The notes under the pieces were generated by a model, which was given only the letters and a program-made list of their open reading frames with translations, had not been told where the DNA came from and did not search any database. Made by a program: the position numbers and the translations under genes. A stretch of DNA of 5,612 bases from a virus, in the IMG/VR virus record IMGVR_UViG_3300045988_001123, positions 1 to 5,612 of that record. One strand, 5' to 3'. Below are positions 1 through 5,612 of this stretch, in pieces. Within the stretch, counting starts at the first letter, position 1. The number at the start of each line of letters is the position of its first letter.

Positions 1-55
1 ACTGGTACAATGCAGCGCAAAGCTGGCAGCAGATGCTCAGTTCTACACAAATGAC
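1..55. repeat. Terminal redundancy copy 1 (identical to 5558-5612), an assembly signature of a circular genome
   Basis: Base-by-base comparison: actggtacaatgcagcgcaaagctggcagcagatgctcagttctacacaaatgac occurs at both ends of the window. Confidence 0.97.
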
Positions 56-200
56 GCCTTACGGACTGCAAAAGGCCTTAACAGAAATCGGAGAAGATAC
101 AAGCAAAGCAATTGACAAAAACGTACCAAAAGGAAGCGAAAAACACAAAAGTAAGGCCGGAGTAACGCACGGCGGAAAAGGCGGTGATATTAAAAAGTGA
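1..200 (+). CDS. VP2 minor capsid / DNA pilot protein, C-terminal part (continuation of 4921-5612 across the circular junction; first full codon at 3; stop TGA 198-200)
   Basis: The frame is open from the window start (W Y N A A Q S W Q Q M L S S T Q M T P Y G L Q K A L T E I G E D T S K ... G G D I K K stop). It is in phase with the ORF that runs off the 3' end once the 55-nt redundancy is collapsed. Total length is 278 aa. Confidence 0.85.
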   Translation, partial: WYNAAQSWQQMLSSTQMTPYGLQKALTEIGEDTSKAIDKNVPKGSEKHKSKAGVTHGGKGGDIKK

Positions 201-1216
201 GTTGTTACAAACCGTTAATACGGCTGTACAACCCGGAAAACAAAGACATAAGCGGGCGGGTGTATTCACTTGCCCGCTTTTCTGAAATATCGGGAAAACA
301 GCTCAAATATGAAGATTTGATGTACAGAAAAGACGTAATGTTGATACCATGCGGACAGTGCATCGGATGCAGAATAAGACAAAGAGAAGACTGGGCAACA
401 CGTATAGAATTAGAAGCACGAGACTATCCGAAAGAAGAAGTGTGGTTTATCACACTAACATATGACGATGACCATGTACCAGGAATGATTGTAAAAACGG
501 GTGAAATCATGCGAAAAGTACAATACGTCTGGAAACCGGGAGAGAAGCGCCCTGAAAGCGTGCAAACGTTACTGTATACTGACGTTCAAAAGTTCTTAAA
601 ACGTCTCAGGAAAGCTAATAGGGGCAAACTACGCTATTTTGTGGCGGGAGAGTATGGAGAACAGACAGCAAGGCCGCATTACCACATGATACTGTATGGA
701 TGGCAACCAACAGACCTGAAACACCTGTACAAGATACAGCACAACGGATACTTCACAAGCCAATGGCTAGCAAACCTATGGGACATGGGTCAAATACAGA
801 TAGCACAAGCAGTGCCAGAAACATATAGATATGTTGCAGGGTACGTCACAAAAAAAATGTACGAGATAGACGGCCAAAAAGCAAACGCATACTATGAGCT
901 AGGGCAACAAAAGCCTTTTGCATGTATGAGTCTCAAGCCAGGCTTAGGAGACCACTATTATCAAGAACACAAAGCGGAAATCTGGAAACAAGGATATATC
1001 CAATGCACAAACGGCAAGCGAGCACAAATTCCGCGTTATTATGAAAAAATGATGGAAGCCGAAAACCCACAAAGATTGTGGAGAATTAAACAGAACAGAC
1101 AAGCAGCAGCAATAGCAGAAAACCGACTAAAGTATGAAAACACAGACTTTGCAGAACAGTGCAAGACAAAAGAAAGGGTGATAAAGAAGCAAATGAAGAA
1201 GAGAGGGACAATCTAA
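197..1216 (+). CDS. VP4 replication initiation protein (HUH rolling-circle endonuclease, Microviridae A/VP4 family)
   Basis: 339-aa ORF with a GTG start. Extended SD AAGGCGGTGAT at 178-188 lies 8 nt upstream. The N-terminus MSCYKP...IPCGQCIGCR matches the typical gokushovirus VP4. Motif 1 is WFITLTYDD, the HUH motif PHYHMILYG has codons 677-685, and the double-tyrosine motif is YVAGYVTKK (Tyr codons 830-832 and 842-844; compare phiX174 A YVAKYVNKK). Confidence 0.92.
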   Translation: MSCYKPLIRLYNPENKDISGRVYSLARFSEISGKQLKYEDLMYRKDVMLIPCGQCIGCRIRQREDWATRIELEARDYPKEEVWFITLTYDDDHVPGMIVKTGEIMRKVQYVWKPGEKRPESVQTLLYTDVQKFLKRLRKANRGKLRYFVAGEYGEQTARPHYHMILYGWQPTDLKHLYKIQHNGYFTSQWLANLWDMGQIQIAQAVPETYRYVAGYVTKKMYEIDGQKANAYYELGQQKPFACMSLKPGLGDHYYQEHKAEIWKQGYIQCTNGKRAQIPRYYEKMMEAENPQRLWRIKQNRQAAAIAENRLKYENTDFAEQCKTKERVIKKQMKKRGTI

Positions 1217-1237
1217 CGGTATCACTAACGGTGTCAC
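1214..1237 (+). repeat. Tandem 12-mer TAACGGTATCAC / TAACGGTGTCAC spanning the VP4 stop codon
   Basis: Two adjacent 12-nt units differ at one position. The second contains GGTGtCACC, a 4+4 inverted repeat. Confidence 0.8.
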
Positions 1238-1239
1238 CT

Positions 1240-1276
1240 AGCCCAGTACCTATCAAGTAAGGTACTGGGCTTTTGT
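1240..1276 (+). terminator. Rho-independent terminator downstream of VP4
   Basis: Perfect stem aGCCCAGTACC (1240-1250) pairs with GGTACTGGGCt (1261-1271). The loop is about 8-10 nt and is followed by TTTTGT. It lies 24 nt after the VP4 stop. Confidence 0.8.
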
Positions 1277-1327
1277 CGTCTAAAGGCTCCATATATCAAA
1301 CTATTCAGTCTATCAAATTACTAAATC

Positions 1328-1381
1328 TATAGCGCACGTGCGCACACGCGCGATAGCGCGCACGCGCGCACGCGCGCTATA
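1328..1381. repeat. GC-rich imperfect palindrome / long hairpin with two alternating purine-pyrimidine tracts
   Basis: Pairing position i with 2709-i gives 21 Watson-Crick pairs out of 25, in blocks of 8 bp, 7 bp, an isolated pair at 1345/1364, and 5 bp, with mismatches at 1336, 1344, 1346 and 1347. The tetraloop is ATAG (1353-1356). The perfect 12-bp palindrome GCGCACGTGCGC lies at 1332-1343. Strict Pu/Py alternation runs over 1332-1352 (21 nt) and 1356-1377 (22 nt). The element is flanked by TATA...TATA. Confidence 0.9.
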
Positions 1382-1476
1382 ATATTAACTTGTTGTAGAA
1401 GTAGTAGTAGGCAATGTGGAAAAGTTGATAAGTGCTAAAATTTAACGTTAAAGCGTAAATAAAAAGCAAAAAACAG

Positions 1477-1588
1477 TGTTGAAAGATTTGTTGAAAATTT
1501 GTTGAAATGTTGAAAGTTCGTCAAAATGACGGAAATCATTGTGCAATATTTTGTTGAAAACCTGTTGAAACTGTTAAAACTGTTGAAA
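1477..1588 (+). repeat. Iteron-like array: 8 direct copies of TGTTGAAA in two clusters
   Basis: Perfect copies start at 1477, 1489, 1500, 1508, 1552, 1563 and 1581. The variant TGTTAAAA starts at 1572. Within-cluster spacing is 8-12 nt. The clusters are separated by a 36-nt spacer containing the palindrome CGTCAaaaTGACG (1519-1531). Degenerate copies may lie upstream (tgttgtagaa 1391-1400, agttgata 1423-1430). Confidence 0.9.
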
Positions 1589-1680
1589 ACGCGCACAGCG
1601 CTAAAAATGAATGGATTAGCCGAGTTCCGCATGCGCTCCACACGGCAAGGCGCTAAAGCGCCATTCAAACCAAAAAACAA

Positions 1681-1709
1681 TTGACGTGTGGCAAAATATA
1701 TGATACAAT
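1681..1709 (+). promoter_or_regulatory. Sigma70/SigA-type promoter with extended -10
   Basis: The -35 is TTGACG (1681-1686). The spacer is 17 nt and ends in TGa. The -10 is TACAAT (1704-1709). The promoter sits about 25 nt upstream of the first gene of the long + strand gene block. Confidence 0.7.
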
Positions 1710-1734
1710 ACACAATAGAAAGCGAGGGAGCAAG

Positions 1735-2124
1735 ATGATTAAAAGCTACATCATGGACACAGACGCAAACGAAAAAGTAGGTCAACACTTTAAAGTGCGA
1801 GAATTTGCATGCAAAGATGGCTCGCAAGTCGTGTTCATCGACAGCTATTTAGTGTCCATTCTGGATATCCTCAGAAACCAAGTCGGTAAGCCAGTATACA
1901 TAAACAGCGGATACAGGACACCGACAAGGAATAAAAAGGTAGGCGGTGCAAAGTACTCATACCACATGCGAGGAATGGCAGCAGACATCCGGATTGAAGG
2001 CATGACCGCAAAAGAAATTGCCGACAAACTGAATAAAATCATTCCGTCTGGATGCGGCATTATCGTGTACAACACATGGGTACACATTGACACACGTACC
2101 AAAACCTACAGAAAGGGGGTATAA
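1735..2124 (+). CDS. Zn-dependent peptidoglycan peptidase, M15 / LAS superfamily (Peptidase_M15_3-like), putative endolysin
   Basis: 129 aa from ATG 1735, with SD GAGGGAG at 1724-1730. Motifs seen: FKVREFACKDG, SGYRTPTRNKKVGGAKYSYHMRGMAAD and WVHIDTR. These give the H-x6-D...H zinc triad (H77 codon 1963-1965, D84, H117). No signal peptide or TM segment is visible. Confidence 0.8.
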   Translation: MIKSYIMDTDANEKVGQHFKVREFACKDGSQVVFIDSYLVSILDILRNQVGKPVYINSGYRTPTRNKKVGGAKYSYHMRGMAADIRIEGMTAKEIADKLNKIIPSGCGIIVYNTWVHIDTRTKTYRKGV

Positions 2125-2125
2125 G

Positions 2126-2248
2126 ATGGCGCTTATTTCCATTAAAGACGTCAAGCAGGCAATTCGTCTAATGATGCAGATTTTGGAAAAGCTTGACGAA
2201 ATCTATCACGCATTGCATGACAGCATCAACGAAAACGAAAAGGAGTAA
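2126..2248 (+). CDS. Hypothetical 40-aa protein (below the ORF-track cutoff)
   Basis: ATG 2126 lies 1 nt after the peptidase stop, with SD AAGGGGG at 2113-2119 (6-nt spacing). The translation is MALISIKDVKQAIRLMMQILEKLDEIYHALHDSINENEKE, an amphipathic helix with an acidic tail. Its last codons carry the SD of the next gene. Confidence 0.5.
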   Translation: MALISIKDVKQAIRLMMQILEKLDEIYHALHDSINENEKE

Positions 2249-2252
2249 AGCC

Positions 2253-2480
2253 ATGATGCACAAAACATGGAACGTAAGAGACCAGACCAAAGAAGAACTG
2301 GAAAAGCTACTCGAGCGAAAATACAAAGAAATCGATAGCAATTACAAAATGGTTAAAAAGGTGTCAAACATCGAAGACGCTAAAAAGCTCATAGATGAAA
2401 TTTGGCAAATGAAAAACTTTGCAAATGCTATAGAAATGGAACTAATCAGAAGGGAGTATAACGATGGCACAGCATCGTAA
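2253..2480 (+). CDS. Hypothetical 75-aa charged, probably helical/coiled-coil protein
   Basis: ATG 2253 is preceded by AAGGAG (2240-2245, 7-nt spacing). The track's TTG 2193 start has no SD and would overlap the upstream ORF. The sequence MMHKTWNVRDQTKEELEKLLERKYKEIDSNYKM... carries no motif I recognise. Confidence 0.6.
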   Translation: MMHKTWNVRDQTKEELEKLLERKYKEIDSNYKMVKKVSNIEDAKKLIDEIWQMKNFANAIEMELIRREYNDGTAS

Positions 2481-2586
2481 GAAGATGAACGGCGCAAAAG
2501 ACCGCCGAATGTTCAACGTAACAGCACGAAAGACCAAAACGATTAACCTCAGCCAAAAGCCCATGCGCGGCGGAATTCGGCTGTAA
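2464..2586 (+). CDS. Small basic DNA-binding/packaging protein (gokushovirus VP8 / phiX174 J-like)
   Basis: The ORF is 40 aa and below the track cutoff. ATG 2464 has SD AGGGAG at 2451-2456 (7-nt spacing). The translation MAQHRKKMNGAKDRRMFNVTARKTKTINLSQKPMRGGIRL is Lys/Arg-rich. Its C-terminal PMRGGIRL resembles the RGG(I/R)R(F/L) ending I recall for Chlamydia-phage and SpV4 ORF8 proteins. Confidence 0.7.
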   Translation: MAQHRKKMNGAKDRRMFNVTARKTKTINLSQKPMRGGIRL

Positions 2587-2602
2587 GAGAAAGGAAAGAA
2601 CA

Positions 2603-2842
2603 ATGGAACATCTGTACTATGGAGTCTACGACAGCGTGGCAAAATGCTATGCATGGGTAGGTGAGAGCAAAAACAACGGAACCTTTGCACGGATGTGCGA
2701 AACGATGCAGAAGGACAAGAGCACGTTCATCGGGCAATCCCCGACCGATTATGTGGGCTACAGACTGGCGTCCTTCAACGATGAAACCGGCGAGTTTTAC
2801 AACGGCAAAGAAAAAGTGTGGGAGGGCAAGCCGAATGAATAA
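2603..2842 (+). CDS. Conserved gokushovirus small non-structural protein (VP5-like)
   Basis: 79 aa, with the purine-rich SD-like AAAGGAAAG at 2590-2598. The pattern YGVYDSVAKCY...NNGTFARMC...SPTDYVGYRLASFNDETGEF matches the Y/FxVxDxxA...A-R-F...DY-L...G-FDD-TG pattern I recall for the small protein encoded between VP4 and VP3 in gokushoviruses. This is recalled from memory, not searched. Confidence 0.6.
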   Translation: MEHLYYGVYDSVAKCYAWVGESKNNGTFARMCETMQKDKSTFIGQSPTDYVGYRLASFNDETGEFYNGKEKVWEGKPNE

Positions 2843-3233
2843 ACGATACGAGGAAGGGCGAGAGCCCTTCTTTTCAAATTCAGGCGAAAAGCTGCAAAAA
2901 CAATACGTCTGGACAAAGGACGAAAAAGGCCAAGAAAAGCTGCTGGAAACCGAGCCAATCGACATCCAGCAGGAAATTGAAAGCTATTCGGATGAATGTG
3001 ATATCAAAAGCATTGTCCGAAAAGCAAGTTTTGACCCACAGTTTCTGAAAAGTCTGTCGGAGGGAGCATTAAACGATACATACACGGATATTACGGAATT
3101 TCCGCAGAACATTCACGAGTACCATCGAATGGTAGCGACCGCACAGGCAAACGCCATGAAACTCGAAGAACTGCAAAAAATGGCAGCAGCAGAACCGGAA
3201 GCAAAGGAAGAAGAAAAGGAGGAAGAAAAGTGA
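2835..3233 (+). CDS. VP3 internal scaffolding protein
   Basis: 132 aa from ATG 2835, with SD GGGAGGG at 2820-2826. The start overlaps the upstream gene by 8 nt (ATGAATAA). The gene lies immediately upstream of VP1. The motif IESYSDECDIKSIVRK...YTDITEFPQNIHEY is typical of the gokushovirus scaffold. The tail is acidic (EEEKEEEK). Confidence 0.75.
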   Translation: MNKRYEEGREPFFSNSGEKLQKQYVWTKDEKGQEKLLETEPIDIQQEIESYSDECDIKSIVRKASFDPQFLKSLSEGALNDTYTDITEFPQNIHEYHRMVATAQANAMKLEELQKMAAAEPEAKEEEKEEEK

Positions 3234-4882
3234 ATCGAAACAACGAAAGACACTTTAATCAGATTCCAGAAATGAAAGCAAGTCGAACGCGGTTCAACCG
3301 CGACCAGACAATTTTAACAACGTTCGATTCCGGCAAGCTGATTCCATTCTATGTTGACGAGGTATTACCGGGCGATACCTTCAACGTAAATACAGCAGCA
3401 ATTGTTCGAATGAGTACACCGAAGTATCCGGTGATGGACGATGCATTCATTGACTTCTACTACTTCTATTGTCCAAACCGAATCCTATGGGATAATTTCA
3501 AGCAGTTCATGGGAGAAGTAGAGCAAACACCGTGGATGCCGAAAAAAGACTATAAAGTGCCCATGATCGTCATCAACGGAAAAAAAGAAAATCCGGAACC
3601 GTATGAAGGATCAATCCTAGATTACATGGGAGTCCCAACGAAAATTGAAAACATTTTTAAAGTAAACGCACTACCAATCAGAGCATATGTAAAAATCTGG
3701 AATGAATTTTTCAGAGATGAAAACGTAGATAATGCAGCAACCATCAAAACCGATGACAGCAACATAAATTATCAAGACGGCAAAGAAAGCGAAAGCGATA
3801 TAGACCAAATCTTACTAAAAGCAATAGGCGGTGGCAGATGCTTACCAGTAAACAAATTCCATGACTACTTCACAAGCTGCCTACCTTATCCTCAGCGCGG
3901 GCCAGCAGTAACACTGCCGATGGAAGGTAATGCACCAGTATTTGGATATAGCGTCTTCCAAGATAACGTCAAAACAACAGATAAAATAATCCTAAACCAG
4001 CCGTGGCCAGCAAACGGCACAACGGACTTTTCAAACGCGGAAAAAGCGGGAAAACTGACAGGAAAAGGCACAGTCGAAGGAGGTAGCTACATCGCACAAG
4101 CATTCCTAAAAGCAGACCTCAGCAATGTAACCGCAGCAACCATCAACGACTTAAGAAAAGCCGTAGCAGTACAGCAGTACTACGAAGCGCTCGCACGAGG
4201 CGGCAGCCGATACCGCGAACAGGTACAAGCACTGTGGAATGTAACTATCAGCGACAAAACGGTACAGATCCCAGAATACCTGGGCGGCGGCAGATACCAC
4301 ATCAATATCAACCAAATCGTGCAGACAGCGGAAAACGATAAGTCACCGCTGGGCGAAACTGGTGCAATGTCAGTGACGCCGATAAACGAAAGCTCTTTTA
4401 CCAAATCTTTTGAAGAGCATGGATTTGTAATTGGTGTCTGTTGTGTGCGACACAATCGCAGTTACCAGCAAGGCTTGGAGCGTTTCTGGAGTCGAGAAGA
4501 CAGACTGGACTACTATGTACCGCAGTTTGCAAATCTAGGCGAACAGCCCGTAAAGAAAAAGGAAATCATGTTGACCGGCACGACAGCGGACGAAGAAACG
4601 TTCGGTTATCAGGAGGCCTGGGCGGACTACCGAATGAAACCAAACCGGGTAAGCGGCCTCATGCGAAGCAACGCAACAGGCACGTTGGACTTCTGGCACT
4701 ACGCAGACAATTATTCAACCGTACCAACACTGTCGCAAGGCTGGATGCAAGAAGGCAAGACCGAAATTGCACGCACACTCGTCGTGCAGAATGAGCCGCA
4801 ATTTTTCGGCGCTATCCGAGTAGCAAACAAAACCACAAGACGGATGCCGTTGTACAGTGTACCGGGCTTGTACAAACTGTAA
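3230..4882 (+). CDS. VP1 major capsid protein (Microviridae F/VP1 family)
   Basis: 550 aa with a GTG start and SD AAGGAGG at 3216-3222 (7-nt spacing). Hallmarks seen: HFNQIP...RTRFNRDQTILTTFDSGKLIPFYVDEVLPGDTF, HDYFTSCLPYPQRG, INDLRKA...ARGGSRY and IPEYLGGG. Confidence 0.95.
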   Translation: MNRNNERHFNQIPEMKASRTRFNRDQTILTTFDSGKLIPFYVDEVLPGDTFNVNTAAIVRMSTPKYPVMDDAFIDFYYFYCPNRILWDNFKQFMGEVEQTPWMPKKDYKVPMIVINGKKENPEPYEGSILDYMGVPTKIENIFKVNALPIRAYVKIWNEFFRDENVDNAATIKTDDSNINYQDGKESESDIDQILLKAIGGGRCLPVNKFHDYFTSCLPYPQRGPAVTLPMEGNAPVFGYSVFQDNVKTTDKIILNQPWPANGTTDFSNAEKAGKLTGKGTVEGGSYIAQAFLKADLSNVTAATINDLRKAVAVQQYYEALARGGSRYREQVQALWNVTISDKTVQIPEYLGGGRYHININQIVQTAENDKSPLGETGAMSVTPINESSFTKSFEEHGFVIGVCCVRHNRSYQQGLERFWSREDRLDYYVPQFANLGEQPVKKKEIMLTGTTADEETFGYQEAWADYRMKPNRVSGLMRSNATGTLDFWHYADNYSTVPTLSQGWMQEGKTEIARTLVVQNEPQFFGAIRVANKTTRRMPLYSVPGLYKL

Positions 4883-4885
4883 GAA

Positions 4886-4891
4886 AGGAGG
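4886..4891 (+). promoter_or_regulatory. Shine-Dalgarno AGGAGG lying 29 nt upstream of the VP2 ATG, separated from it by a hairpin
   Basis: This is the only SD-like element between the VP1 stop (4880-4882) and ATG 4921. The 8 nt directly before the ATG are attttaa-like and have no SD. Confidence 0.55.
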
Positions 4892-4892
4892 A

Positions 4893-4918
4893 AGCCCGGA
4901 GAAATCCGGGCTATTTTT
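4893..4918 (+). terminator. Rho-independent (probably leaky) terminator between VP1 and VP2
   Basis: The stem is AGCCCGG (4893-4899) pairing with CCGGGCT (4906-4912). The loop is agaaat, followed by aTTTTT (4913-4918). Confidence 0.7.
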
Positions 4919-4920
4919 AA

Positions 4921-5612
4921 ATGAGTGGATTATCTGGACTCTTAACAGCACTAAACGTAGCGGGAAACGTAGCGAACACAATCGGAACTTTTGCAGGAGC
5001 AGCTAAAAACATAGCCGGAGCGTTTGGTGGATGGGGGCAAACAGGCAATAGCCAAAGTAGCGGCGGCAGCACAAGCCAAGGCGGCGGACACTCCGAAAGC
5101 GGAAGTCAATCGGGCACCAACGTGCAGCAAGTCAATGACTGGTTAAAACAGGCATACGCATACCAAGGACAAGAAGCAGCCATGCAAGGCAAATACAACA
5201 GCCAGAGTATGTTAAAACAGATGGGCTATAACACGCTACAAGCAATCATGCAAGGCGTATACAACCACATCGAAAACAGTGTAGCAATGAACTACAACAG
5301 CGCAGAAGCACTAGCAAACAGGGACTGGCAAGAGCACATGTCAAACACAGCGTACCAGCGAGCCGTTGAGGACATGAAAAAAGCAGGGATTAACCCTATC
5401 TTAGCATTCGCAAACGGCGGCGCAAGCACACCGGGAGGAAGTGCAGGAACAATCAGTGGAGCAAGTATGGGACTTGCAAGCAGCAGCGCACTAGGAGTAA
5501 GCAGAAGCGGAGGATTTGTGCCTAACGCATACGAAAGCAACAGTTGGAGCAAAAGCGACTGGTACAATGCAGCGCAAAGCTGGCAGCAGATGCTCAGTTC
5601 TACACAAATGAC
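4921..5612 (+). CDS. VP2 minor capsid / DNA pilot protein, N-terminal part (runs off the window and continues at 1-200)
   Basis: ATG 4921 is the first possible start, because an in-frame TAA lies at 4918-4920. I translated the frame by hand and found no stop to 5612. It has a hydrophobic Gly/Ala-rich N-terminus, a G/S/Q-rich low-complexity segment, and the hallmark NTAYQRAVEDMKKAGINPILAF. Confidence 0.88.
   Translation, partial: MSGLSGLLTALNVAGNVANTIGTFAGAAKNIAGAFGGWGQTGNSQSSGGSTSQGGGHSESGSQSGTNVQQVNDWLKQAYAYQGQEAAMQGKYNSQSMLKQMGYNTLQAIMQGVYNHIENSVAMNYNSAEALANRDWQEHMSNTAYQRAVEDMKKAGINPILAFANGGASTPGGSAGTISGASMGLASSSALGVSRSGGFVPNAYESNSWSKSDWYNAAQSWQQMLSSTQM
5558..5612. repeat. Terminal redundancy copy 2 (identical to 1-55)
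   Basis: Same 55-mer as 1-55. The VP2 reading frame is continuous through it. Confidence 0.97.

Follow-up and report, generated by a model that had tools for sequence, protein, structure and literature searches.

An invertible oriC-like cassette with putative DnaA boxes and DnaA-trios in gokushoviruses of the gut

An array of direct repeats is part of a larger cassette

The stretch of DNA analysed here (5,612 nt, positions 1 to 5,612 of the IMG/VR record IMGVR_UViG_3300045988_001123; referred to as the window) carries an exact 55-nt direct repeat at its ends (1-55 = 5558-5612) and, because its first 55 nt recur at the end, represents a complete circular genome with a unit of 5,557 nt. Its nearest relatives are gokushoviruses from human, pig and monkey gut. 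Between the genes for VP4/Rep (197-1216, + strand) and peptidase M15 (1735-2124, + strand) lies the subject of this report, a cassette of 215 bp (1376-1590, + strand) that consists of an AT-rich end, a run of trinucleotides resembling DnaA-trios, a short spacer and ten co-oriented 9-mers resembling DnaA boxes. We refer to this cassette as oriC-like and not as an oriC proper because it is phage-borne and lies between VP4 and peptidase M15.

The original prediction, which was made from the sequence alone, described an array of eight same-orientation repeats at 1477-1588 that are arranged in two clusters of four with a phasing of 8-12 nt and are separated by a spacer containing a palindrome. The analysis bears out all of these points. 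Seven exact copies of TGTTGAAA start at 1477, 1489, 1500, 1508, 1552, 1563 and 1581, all on the + strand, and the variant TGTTAAAA starts at 1572; the start-to-start spacings are 12, 11 and 8 nt in cluster I and 11, 9 and 9 nt in cluster II, and the palindrome CGTCAAAATGACG is present at 1519-1531. Written as 9-mers, the repeats are TGTTGAAAG, TGTTGAAAA, TGTTGAAAT and TGTTGAAAG in cluster I (1477-1516, + strand) and TGTTGAAAA, TGTTGAAAC, TGTTAAAAC and TGTTGAAAA in cluster II (1552-1589, + strand). A genome-wide background count confines TGTTGAAA to the array, with no copy elsewhere in the 5.6-kb window on either strand and zero copies on the - strand. The density of the repeats is also beyond chance, as had been proposed: the relaxed family TGTKGAWA has eight co-oriented copies in 230 nt as opposed to at most two in 1000 dinucleotide shuffles.

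The assignment of the repeats to non-coding DNA likewise holds. No Pfam match was found for the open reading frames crossing the repeat region, and no Rfam family reached its gathering score there. In the related genomes described below, the lengths of the corresponding modules fall into all three classes modulo 3 (32/19/19), which argues that the region is non-coding; frames without stop codons over the array, present in 65 of 73 modules, result from the composition of the repeats and are not evidence for coding. With no Pfam match, no kept reading frame and no Rfam family at gathering score, a hidden gene or a non-coding RNA was ruled out.

Two further boxes at 1415-1423 and 1423-1431 and a run of TAG-type trios at 1396-1410 had been overlooked. 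These elements belong to the same cassette as the repeats and are the key to its identification. From 5' to 3' on the + strand, the cassette begins with an AT-rich and easily melted end, CTATAATATTAAC, followed by a near-invariant TTGTTG (1377-1395), which together represent a candidate unwinding element. Next are five trios, TAG AAG TAG TAG TAG (1396-1410), in which 5'-TAG-3' corresponds to 3'-GAT-5', the consensus of DnaA-trios (PMC8287927), and a 4-nt spacer, GCAA (1411-1414), which is G-rich in relatives (GGGG, GGAG, GGCC). The trio-proximal box TGTGGAAAA (reverse complement TTTTCCACA; 1415-1423), which aligns with DnaA-box 7 of Bacillus subtilis, is 4 nt from the trios and is the sole exact match to TTWTNCACA in the genome. 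The second box, AGTTGATAA (1423-1431), overlaps the first by 1 nt, giving a start-to-start distance of 8 bp. The two clusters of four follow further downstream.

The cassette stands out in its predicted duplex stability. It is the least stable duplex of the genome at both the 100-bp and the 215-bp scale, and the 20-mer from 1377 (1377-1396) is the second least stable of the genome (-20.3 versus a mean of -27.4 kcal/mol). By contrast, the GC-rich DNA bracketing the cassette is the most stable duplex of the region. On the left, this DNA includes an inverted repeat of GC-rich alternating purines and pyrimidines with 25-nt arms that are 84% complementary (1328-1381), here referred to as the left clamp; folded as single-stranded DNA (ssDNA), it gives a hairpin with a free energy of -24.4 kcal/mol (z = -2.6). 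This inverted repeat could be a recombination site for inversion, a melting clamp, a Z-DNA former or a minus-strand origin. On the right, the boundary is the GC-rich CGCGCACAGCGC (1590-1601), which coincides with a step in stability at 1581-1600 and with the point at which the collinear flank restarts in L324, a close relative with an inverted cassette.

The cassette has the layout of the basal unwinding system of B. subtilis

oriC of B. subtilis contains a basal unwinding system (BUS) composed of DnaA-boxes 6 and 7, a GC spacer, DnaA-trios and an AT-rich region (PMC6669920, PMC8287927, PMC10721633; structure 8btg), in which the gap between the proximal box and the trios is ~4 bp (PMC8287927). 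Positions 1393-1433 of the window, TTGTAGAAGTAGTAGTAG-GCAA-TGTGGAAAAGTTGATAAGT, can be aligned without gaps to the B. subtilis scaffold oligo TAGTAGAAGTAATAGTAG-GGCC-TGTGGATTTGTGGATAAGT (supplement of PMC8287927) with 32 of 41 positions identical, whereas shuffles reach at most 26 of 41. This alignment covers the same strand, the same trio position, the 4-nt spacer and the 8-bp offset between boxes. A strict pattern of trios, spacer and box occurred in 0 of 1000 shuffles, and the geometry of the two boxes in the window is that of box 7 and box 6 of B. subtilis (TGTGGATT/TGTGGATAA) in the oligo oHM558.

A BUS is defined by at least one box, and usually a co-oriented tandem pair, with at most two mismatches to TTATCCACA, at least three consecutive NAN trios adjoining the boxes, a spacer of ~4 bp to the proximal and 10-13 bp to the distal box (at most 16 bp), an orientation in which boxes face the trios, the strand that reads TGTGGATAA carrying the trios 5' of it (reversal inactivates incC of B. 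subtilis), and an AT-rich, easily unwound region beyond the trios. In the window, TGTGGAAAA and AGTTGATAA have one and two mismatches, respectively; the trios are those at 1396-1410; the spacers are 4 nt (proximal) and 12 nt (distal); the trios are 5' of the boxes, with strand and order as in oHM558; and the AT-rich region is at 1377-1396. At the level of its sequence, the cassette thus has every defining feature of a BUS, sharing with that of B. subtilis the order and strand of the elements, at least three trios with a central A, the 4-nt spacer, the boxes 8 bp apart and the AT-rich end. It differs in that it is part of a 5.6-kb ssDNA phage and is not next to dnaA, in that its boxes are mostly TTTTCAACA, in the addition of two tight four-box clusters 45 and 38 nt further on, and in that the whole unit is GC-clamped and invertible.

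The cassette is conserved and inverted among microviruses

Using the spacer between VP4 and the peptidase gene in blastn, 54 GenBank phage records were matched, and the common core corresponds to ~1378-1590 of the window, even in genomes without other detectable DNA similarity. By combining GenBank records with two pattern scans of viral contigs, we identified the cassette in ~82 microvirus genomes. The presence of the same locus in ~82 independent genomes, together with the lack of VP1 and VP4 in the bacterial loci listed below, rules out contamination or chimeric assembly. The layout is fixed: in the 5' to 3' direction, an AT-rich stretch TATAATATTAAC leads into CTTGTTG, after which come five or six TAG-type triplets, a G-rich spacer of 3-4 nt, two overlapping 9-mers (TGTGGAAAA/AGTTGATAA in the window), ~45 nt, four repeats (12, 11 and 8 nt), ~38 nt of variable sequence and four repeats (11, 9 and 9 nt). 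In 52 of 70 modules, cluster I is 89 nt away from the trios. Over 73 modules, no other part of the cassette is conserved as strongly as the trios, the last three of which are TAG in 100%, and CTTGTTG immediately 5' of the trios (1389-1395), which is not a proper NAN trio, is 81-100% conserved.

The repeats tolerate few substitutions. At homologous slots, a repeat is swapped only for TGTGGAAAA, for TGTGGATAA (a perfect DnaA box, TTATCCACA) or for TGTTGATA, and the set of sequences interchanged at repeat slots is limited to TGTTGAAA, TGTGGAAA(A), TGTGGATAA and TGTTGATA. For instance, slot 2 of cluster I is TGTGGATAA in the clade of L009, L017, L022, L083, L121 and L123, and slot 1 of cluster II is TGTGGAAAA in many relatives. 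In an unbiased count, position 4 of the repeat is T in 459, G in 68 and C in 0 of 527 repeats from the 73 modules. The original prediction proposed that related gokushoviruses be aligned to look for conserved repeats that co-vary in sequence. Conservation was found and co-variation with Rep was not: the 8-mer is unchanged in genomes with VP4 37-57% and VP1 41-55% identical to those of the window, and is therefore constant despite the divergence of VP4.

In 20 of the 82 genomes (~24%), the orientation of the cassette with respect to the coding strand is inverted. In L324, VP4 of which is 91% identical to that of the window, exactly the segment corresponding to 1376-1590 is flipped in place with both flanks collinear, the promoter-bearing side included. 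The inverted cassette of L324 lies between GC-rich self-complementary boundaries, with a GC-rich palindrome comparable to that of the window. Inversion of the cassette at this frequency fits an element that acts on duplex DNA. The coding strand of these phages is A-rich (A 37%, T 18%), and this skew is the same in both orientations of the cassette (window and 39 related genomes); that it tracks the coding strand irrespective of the cassette is suggestive as to which strand is packaged but is no proof. Only the near clade of the window has the palindrome at 1519-1531; in other clades unrelated sequence takes its place, and it is probably not essential. In Chp2, phiMH2K and SpV4, neither the box cluster nor the trios were found. 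An old inverted clade (L006, L007, L042, L098, L113) has an extra box in the opposite orientation, TTTTCCACA, immediately after cluster II, which the window does not have; mixed box orientations also occur in bacterial origins.

The cassette shares its design with chromosomal origins of Oscillospiraceae and Ruminococcus

The DnaA boxes in oriC of Ruminococcus albus 7 are listed as TGTTGAAAA-ACC-TGTTGAAAA (table in PMC8287927). We scanned 185,579 bacterial species genomes for three closely spaced boxes of which the first is an exact TGTTGAAA and obtained at least 120 loci compared to 1-2 estimated by chance; the loci, fixed 8-kb blocks in which neighbouring genes are often cut off, were examined by tblastn and nhmmer. 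Among the matches listed (at least 120), none has a microvirus VP1 or VP4, 65 are Clostridia by record name, 38 of these 65 being Oscillospiraceae, Ruminococcus, Ruminococcaceae, Gemmiger or Acutalibacteraceae, and 14 arrays have dnaA and/or dnaN no more than ~500 bp away (for L146 and L174 with confirmation by Pfam); wherever dnaA is present among these matches, the array sits in the dnaA-dnaN spacer.

In three of these loci, L146, L155 and L174, the order TAGTAGTAG-GGGG/GGTA-TGTTGAAAC-TGTTGAAAA is followed by box clusters with phage-like spacing; the origin of L146, for example, reads tagTAGTAGTAGTAG-gggg-TGTTGAAAc-TGTTGAAAa and then TGTTGAAAgatTGTTGAAAAGTTGAAA. A profile built from the phage modules gives collinear nhmmer matches to all three (E = 2.5e-17 for L146, 1e-13 for L155 and 2e-13 for L174), L146 and L174 have the same 11/8 spacing as cluster I, and 702 phage boxes and 128 bacterial-origin boxes are near-identical in composition. 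The design of the phage cassette is thus that of the Oscillospiraceae/Ruminococcus oriC (L146, L155, L174; R. albus 7 in DoriC/PMC8287927) with respect to the box variant, the TAG trios, the G-rich spacer, the 11/8 and 11/9 box spacings and collinearity over ~180-200 nt. The bacterial origins differ in being 300-1200 bp long, in having more boxes, in both orientations, and in being flanked by dnaA and dnaN, whereas the phage version is compact with all boxes in one orientation. AACTTGTTGTAG is common to phage cassettes and the bacterial dnaA-dnaN origin L214 (~6440-6470). L214, labelled as an Oxalobacter sp. bin, has a Firmicutes-like dnaA-origin-dnaN arrangement and, of the bacterial origins listed, is closest to the phage trio flank; its bin label may be mis-assigned.

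DnaA encoded beside origins of the TGTTGAAA type (L146, C-terminus at 2333-2650; L155, L214, L243) has the recognition helix DHSTIVYS, whereas the DNA-reading helix of B. subtilis and Aquifex DnaA is DHTTVIHA. Judging from the protein sequences, this helix is compatible with a shifted box preference and may be the basis of the box variant. The box variant and the layout point to hosts of the Oscillospiraceae/Ruminococcus type, as far as can be read from sequence. Eight Pseudomonas loci (L134, L149, L186, L193, L199, L201, L202, L241) share a cluster of 5-6 co-oriented boxes that has no dnaA adjoining it within the 8-kb blocks. This cluster, which may be a secondary DnaA-box cluster, is ~130-190 kb from the start of the sequence in two complete chromosomes.

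A model for the function of the cassette

Combining architecture, conservation, inversion and the match to bacterial origins, we consider it highly probable that the cassette is a DnaA-box/DnaA-trio module, and we suggest that the TGTTGAAA repeats are most likely host DnaA boxes of the variant TTTTCAACA and not iterons for VP4. In our model, host DnaA would bind the double-stranded replicative form (RF) at its ten boxes, occupying the two trio-proximal boxes, while the two four-box clusters would raise the local concentration of DnaA and aid its oligomerisation. Starting from the trio-proximal boxes, an ATP-DnaA filament would then spread along one strand over its TAG trios, melting the adjoining AT-rich stretch between the GC-rich clamps. 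Subsequently, host helicase, primase and replisome would be loaded to give Rep-independent and orientation-independent (theta-type) DNA synthesis on the RF. We infer binding of DnaA and, one step further removed, unwinding and firing of the origin. As both the trios and the geometry are conserved almost perfectly, we favor unwinding over mere binding or titration. That the cassette fires as a replication origin seems to us somewhat better than an even chance, and we lean to the same slight degree towards the full mechanism with DnaA recruitment, unwinding and a Rep-independent start on the RF.

Several points weigh against this model. The evidence that DnaA would bind TTTTCAACA is of a single kind, the origin context in which this variant occurs, and the stringent Escherichia coli consensus has a C where the boxes of the cassette carry an A. 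Some boxes are 8-9 bp apart, too tight for simultaneous occupancy in the E. coli manner, although boxes 6 and 7 of B. subtilis are likewise 8 bp apart. Most of the listed bacterial loci (at least 120) are not placed at an origin, the 8-kb blocks not being centred on the match, and some matches are in Pseudomonas and Bacteroidota and are not placed in an origin context. Moreover, a phage replicating by rolling circle has no obvious need for a second origin, and the host of this phage is suggested only indirectly.

The identity of the boxes with host origin boxes is equally compatible with titration. Together with the ten co-oriented boxes per genome and the strong promoter nearby, it brings up an alternative that we regard as rather unlikely, namely that the cassette serves as a sink or a sensor for DnaA: the multicopy RF, with ten boxes each, would titrate host DnaA in the manner of datA or of multicopy box arrays and block chromosome initiation, or occupancy by DnaA would regulate the promoter 93 nt downstream and in that way tie lysis and late genes to the growth state of the host. 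However, a sink has no need for trios, a fixed 4-nt spacer, a box orientation or an AT-rich end, yet these are the most conserved elements, and inversion alters how far from the boxes the promoter is and how it is oriented to them, since it is not part of the invertible unit. An alternative listed in the original prediction, that of host-factor sites, comes close to the evidence. In another and still less probable scenario, DnaA would assist rolling circle replication by melting the AT-rich/CTTGTTG stretch, with VP4 nicking inside the cassette, which would then be the plus-strand origin. HUH nucleases require a single-stranded substrate, CTTGTTG beside the trios is almost invariant, AACTTG resembles the core of the phiX174 cleavage site, matching the first six of the bases around it, and the trio strand is the coding strand in 76% of genomes. 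Nevertheless, inversion in the remaining 24% would mean that the other strand is packaged, yet both groups have a skew that follows the coding strand in the same way; Chp2, phiMH2K and SpV4 have a homologous Rep and no cassette; and the same AACTTGTTGTAG is present in the bacterial dnaA-dnaN origin L214.

The original prediction emphasized iterons for VP4 (Rep), with the palindrome at 1519-1531 as the stem-loop of the nick site, as in the HUH origins of CRESS-DNA viruses, which have circular ssDNA that encodes a Rep, and of plasmids. Origin-style sites for a replication initiator are supported by our data; VP4, the HUH Rep, as this initiator is very improbable. Direct same-orientation 8-mer repeats in non-coding DNA beside a rep gene are indeed what such an origin would look like, but the 8-mer is identical at 37-57% VP4 identity and does not co-vary with Rep, its slots are swapped for DnaA boxes, the repeats also fill dnaA-dnaN origin spacers of bacteria, the palindrome is clade-specific and not conserved as a stem-loop, the orientation is not fixed (20 of 82 inverted, including L324 with a 91% identical VP4), the classical gokushoviruses (Chp2, phiMH2K, SpV4) do not have the repeats, and repeats and layout are common to bacterial chromosomal origins that encode no VP4. 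Being dispensable in the subfamily, independent of Rep and present in either orientation, the cassette is neither a site at which Rep binds and nicks nor an origin of the single-stranded form. The latter argument bears on a complementary-strand (minus) origin on the incoming ssDNA, similar to the plasmid single-strand origin (sso), the phiX174 primosome assembly site or ABC-primosome hairpins. ssDNA phages need such a site, and DnaA-dependent priming on DnaA-box hairpins is known from the A site of R6K, but all boxes are co-oriented, the - strand having none, so that pairing within a single strand cannot give duplex boxes, elements acting on ssDNA depend on orientation whereas 24% of the cassettes are inverted, and the neighbouring GC hairpin at 1328-1381 is a better candidate; we give this alternative hardly any weight. 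Equally little speaks for the repeats being sites for a different host regulator such as Spo0A, decoy -35 hexamers for RNA polymerase or a packaging signal, the last two of which had also been listed. TGTTGAA is one mismatch from the Spo0A box, TGTCGAA, and TTGAAA resembles a -35 hexamer; on the other hand, TGTCGAA is absent from the 73 modules (C at position 4 in 0 of 527), which rules out Spo0A boxes, only one weak promoter-like match is present inside the array, which rules out a promoter array, and none of the three readings explains the trios and the match to chromosomal origins.

Comparison with other replication systems and implications

The host DnaA module proposed here can be compared with several known systems. 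HUH-Rep iteron origins (CRESS-DNA viruses, geminiviruses, rolling-circle plasmids) resemble the cassette in that short direct repeats lie close to a rep gene, in DNA that does not code; unlike the repeats of the cassette, their iterons are Rep-specific, co-vary with Rep, have a fixed orientation and are accompanied by a conserved nick-site hairpin, and the cassette fails every testable feature of such origins. The 30-nt origin of phiX174 also belongs to a member of the Microviridae with a two-tyrosine HUH Rep and has the 6-nt likeness AACTTG to the cassette, but is a single site without repeats, lies inside gene A and depends on strand and orientation. P1 oriR, pSC101, F and RK2 are theta origins that recruit host DnaA by means of DnaA boxes, a few of which are paired with iterons for a plasmid-encoded initiator. 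Like the cassette, these are mobile replicons with DnaA boxes; the cassette comes without such an initiator gene and with a full chromosomal DnaA-trio design. The recognised genes of the window are the microvirus core and peptidase M15 only, with no plasmid-type initiator (RepA/Rep_3-like) among them, and an iteron-type theta plasmid origin, which has a replicon-encoded initiator of this kind, was rejected on this ground; a relative of a plasmid origin was ruled out by the lack of a blastn match in PLSDB. DnaA-titrating clusters of the datA type consist of DnaA boxes outside oriC and have no DnaA-trios or unwinding element. Both datA and the cassette are box clusters outside oriC, but the cassette has trios and an unwinding element.

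The cassette resembles the chromosomal BUS; its presence in an ssDNA phage that replicates by rolling circle, of which we found no earlier description, would imply capture of the host initiator. A search of the full-text literature, the coverage of which is incomplete so that the result is absence of evidence only, gave no paper in which DnaA boxes, oriC or DnaA-trios are connected with Microviridae or gokushoviruses, and a search for the 8-mer returned primers only. Microviridae are the textbook case of Rep-driven rolling circle replication; if our interpretation is correct, a large gut clade (~82 gokushovirus genomes) has co-opted the host initiator, with consequences for the replication, the persistence and the interference with host replication of very abundant gut phages. 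More tentatively, and with a probability that we consider low, the RF could be a self-replicating minichromosome of the oriC type: a second, host-DnaA-driven theta mode would allow it to persist in Oscillospiraceae and to be passed on there in the manner of a plasmid, as an episome (carrier state or non-integrative lysogeny), coupled to the DnaA-ATP cell-cycle signal and rivaling the host origin for DnaA. The cassette would also provide a sequence-based host clue for gut gokushoviruses, the hosts of which are mostly unknown, a compact (~55-nt core, 215 nt in total), portable and invertible natural BUS in which the BUS model could be tested in a new context, and, for gut Clostridia that are genetically intractable, a candidate for a minimal replicon.

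Other features of the genome and related arrays

All genes of this microvirus genome are on the + strand. In addition to VP4 and peptidase M15, these include VP5 (2603-2842), the scaffold protein VP3 (2661-3233), the capsid protein VP1 (3230-4882) and VP2, which spans the junction of the circular 5,557-nt genome. The promoter proposed in the original prediction was recovered at 1681-1709 on the + strand, outside the cassette and upstream of the peptidase M15 gene: TTGACG-17-TACAAT, starting at 1681 and 93 nt past the repeat array, is a strong sigma-70-type promoter with 10 of 12 matches and a TG extension. With its extended -10 element (TTGACG-17-TGATACAAT) it is near-consensus. The promoter and the peptidase M15 fit a Firmicutes-type host and a lysis strategy based on a cell-wall hydrolase.

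Arrays of similar boxes were also observed in viral contigs other than microviruses. L321, L334, L310 and L323 contain non-coding arrays of 8-14 boxes of the TGTTGAAA type, in L321 with a BUS-like layout (TAGTAG-gggc-box-box); in these four contigs we found no microvirus proteins and no encoded DnaA or DnaN. Other mobile elements that share these hosts may thus also make use of oriC-like modules. In L266, L276 and L343 the repeats are coding peptide repeats only.

Two further self-complementary sequences are conserved in the near clade of the window. A perfect 12-nt palindrome, TTTAACGTTAAA, is located at 1441-1452 between the trio-proximal boxes and cluster I, and a hairpin, GGCGCTAAAGCGCC, is located at ~1648-1662, upstream of the promoter in the flank on the right.

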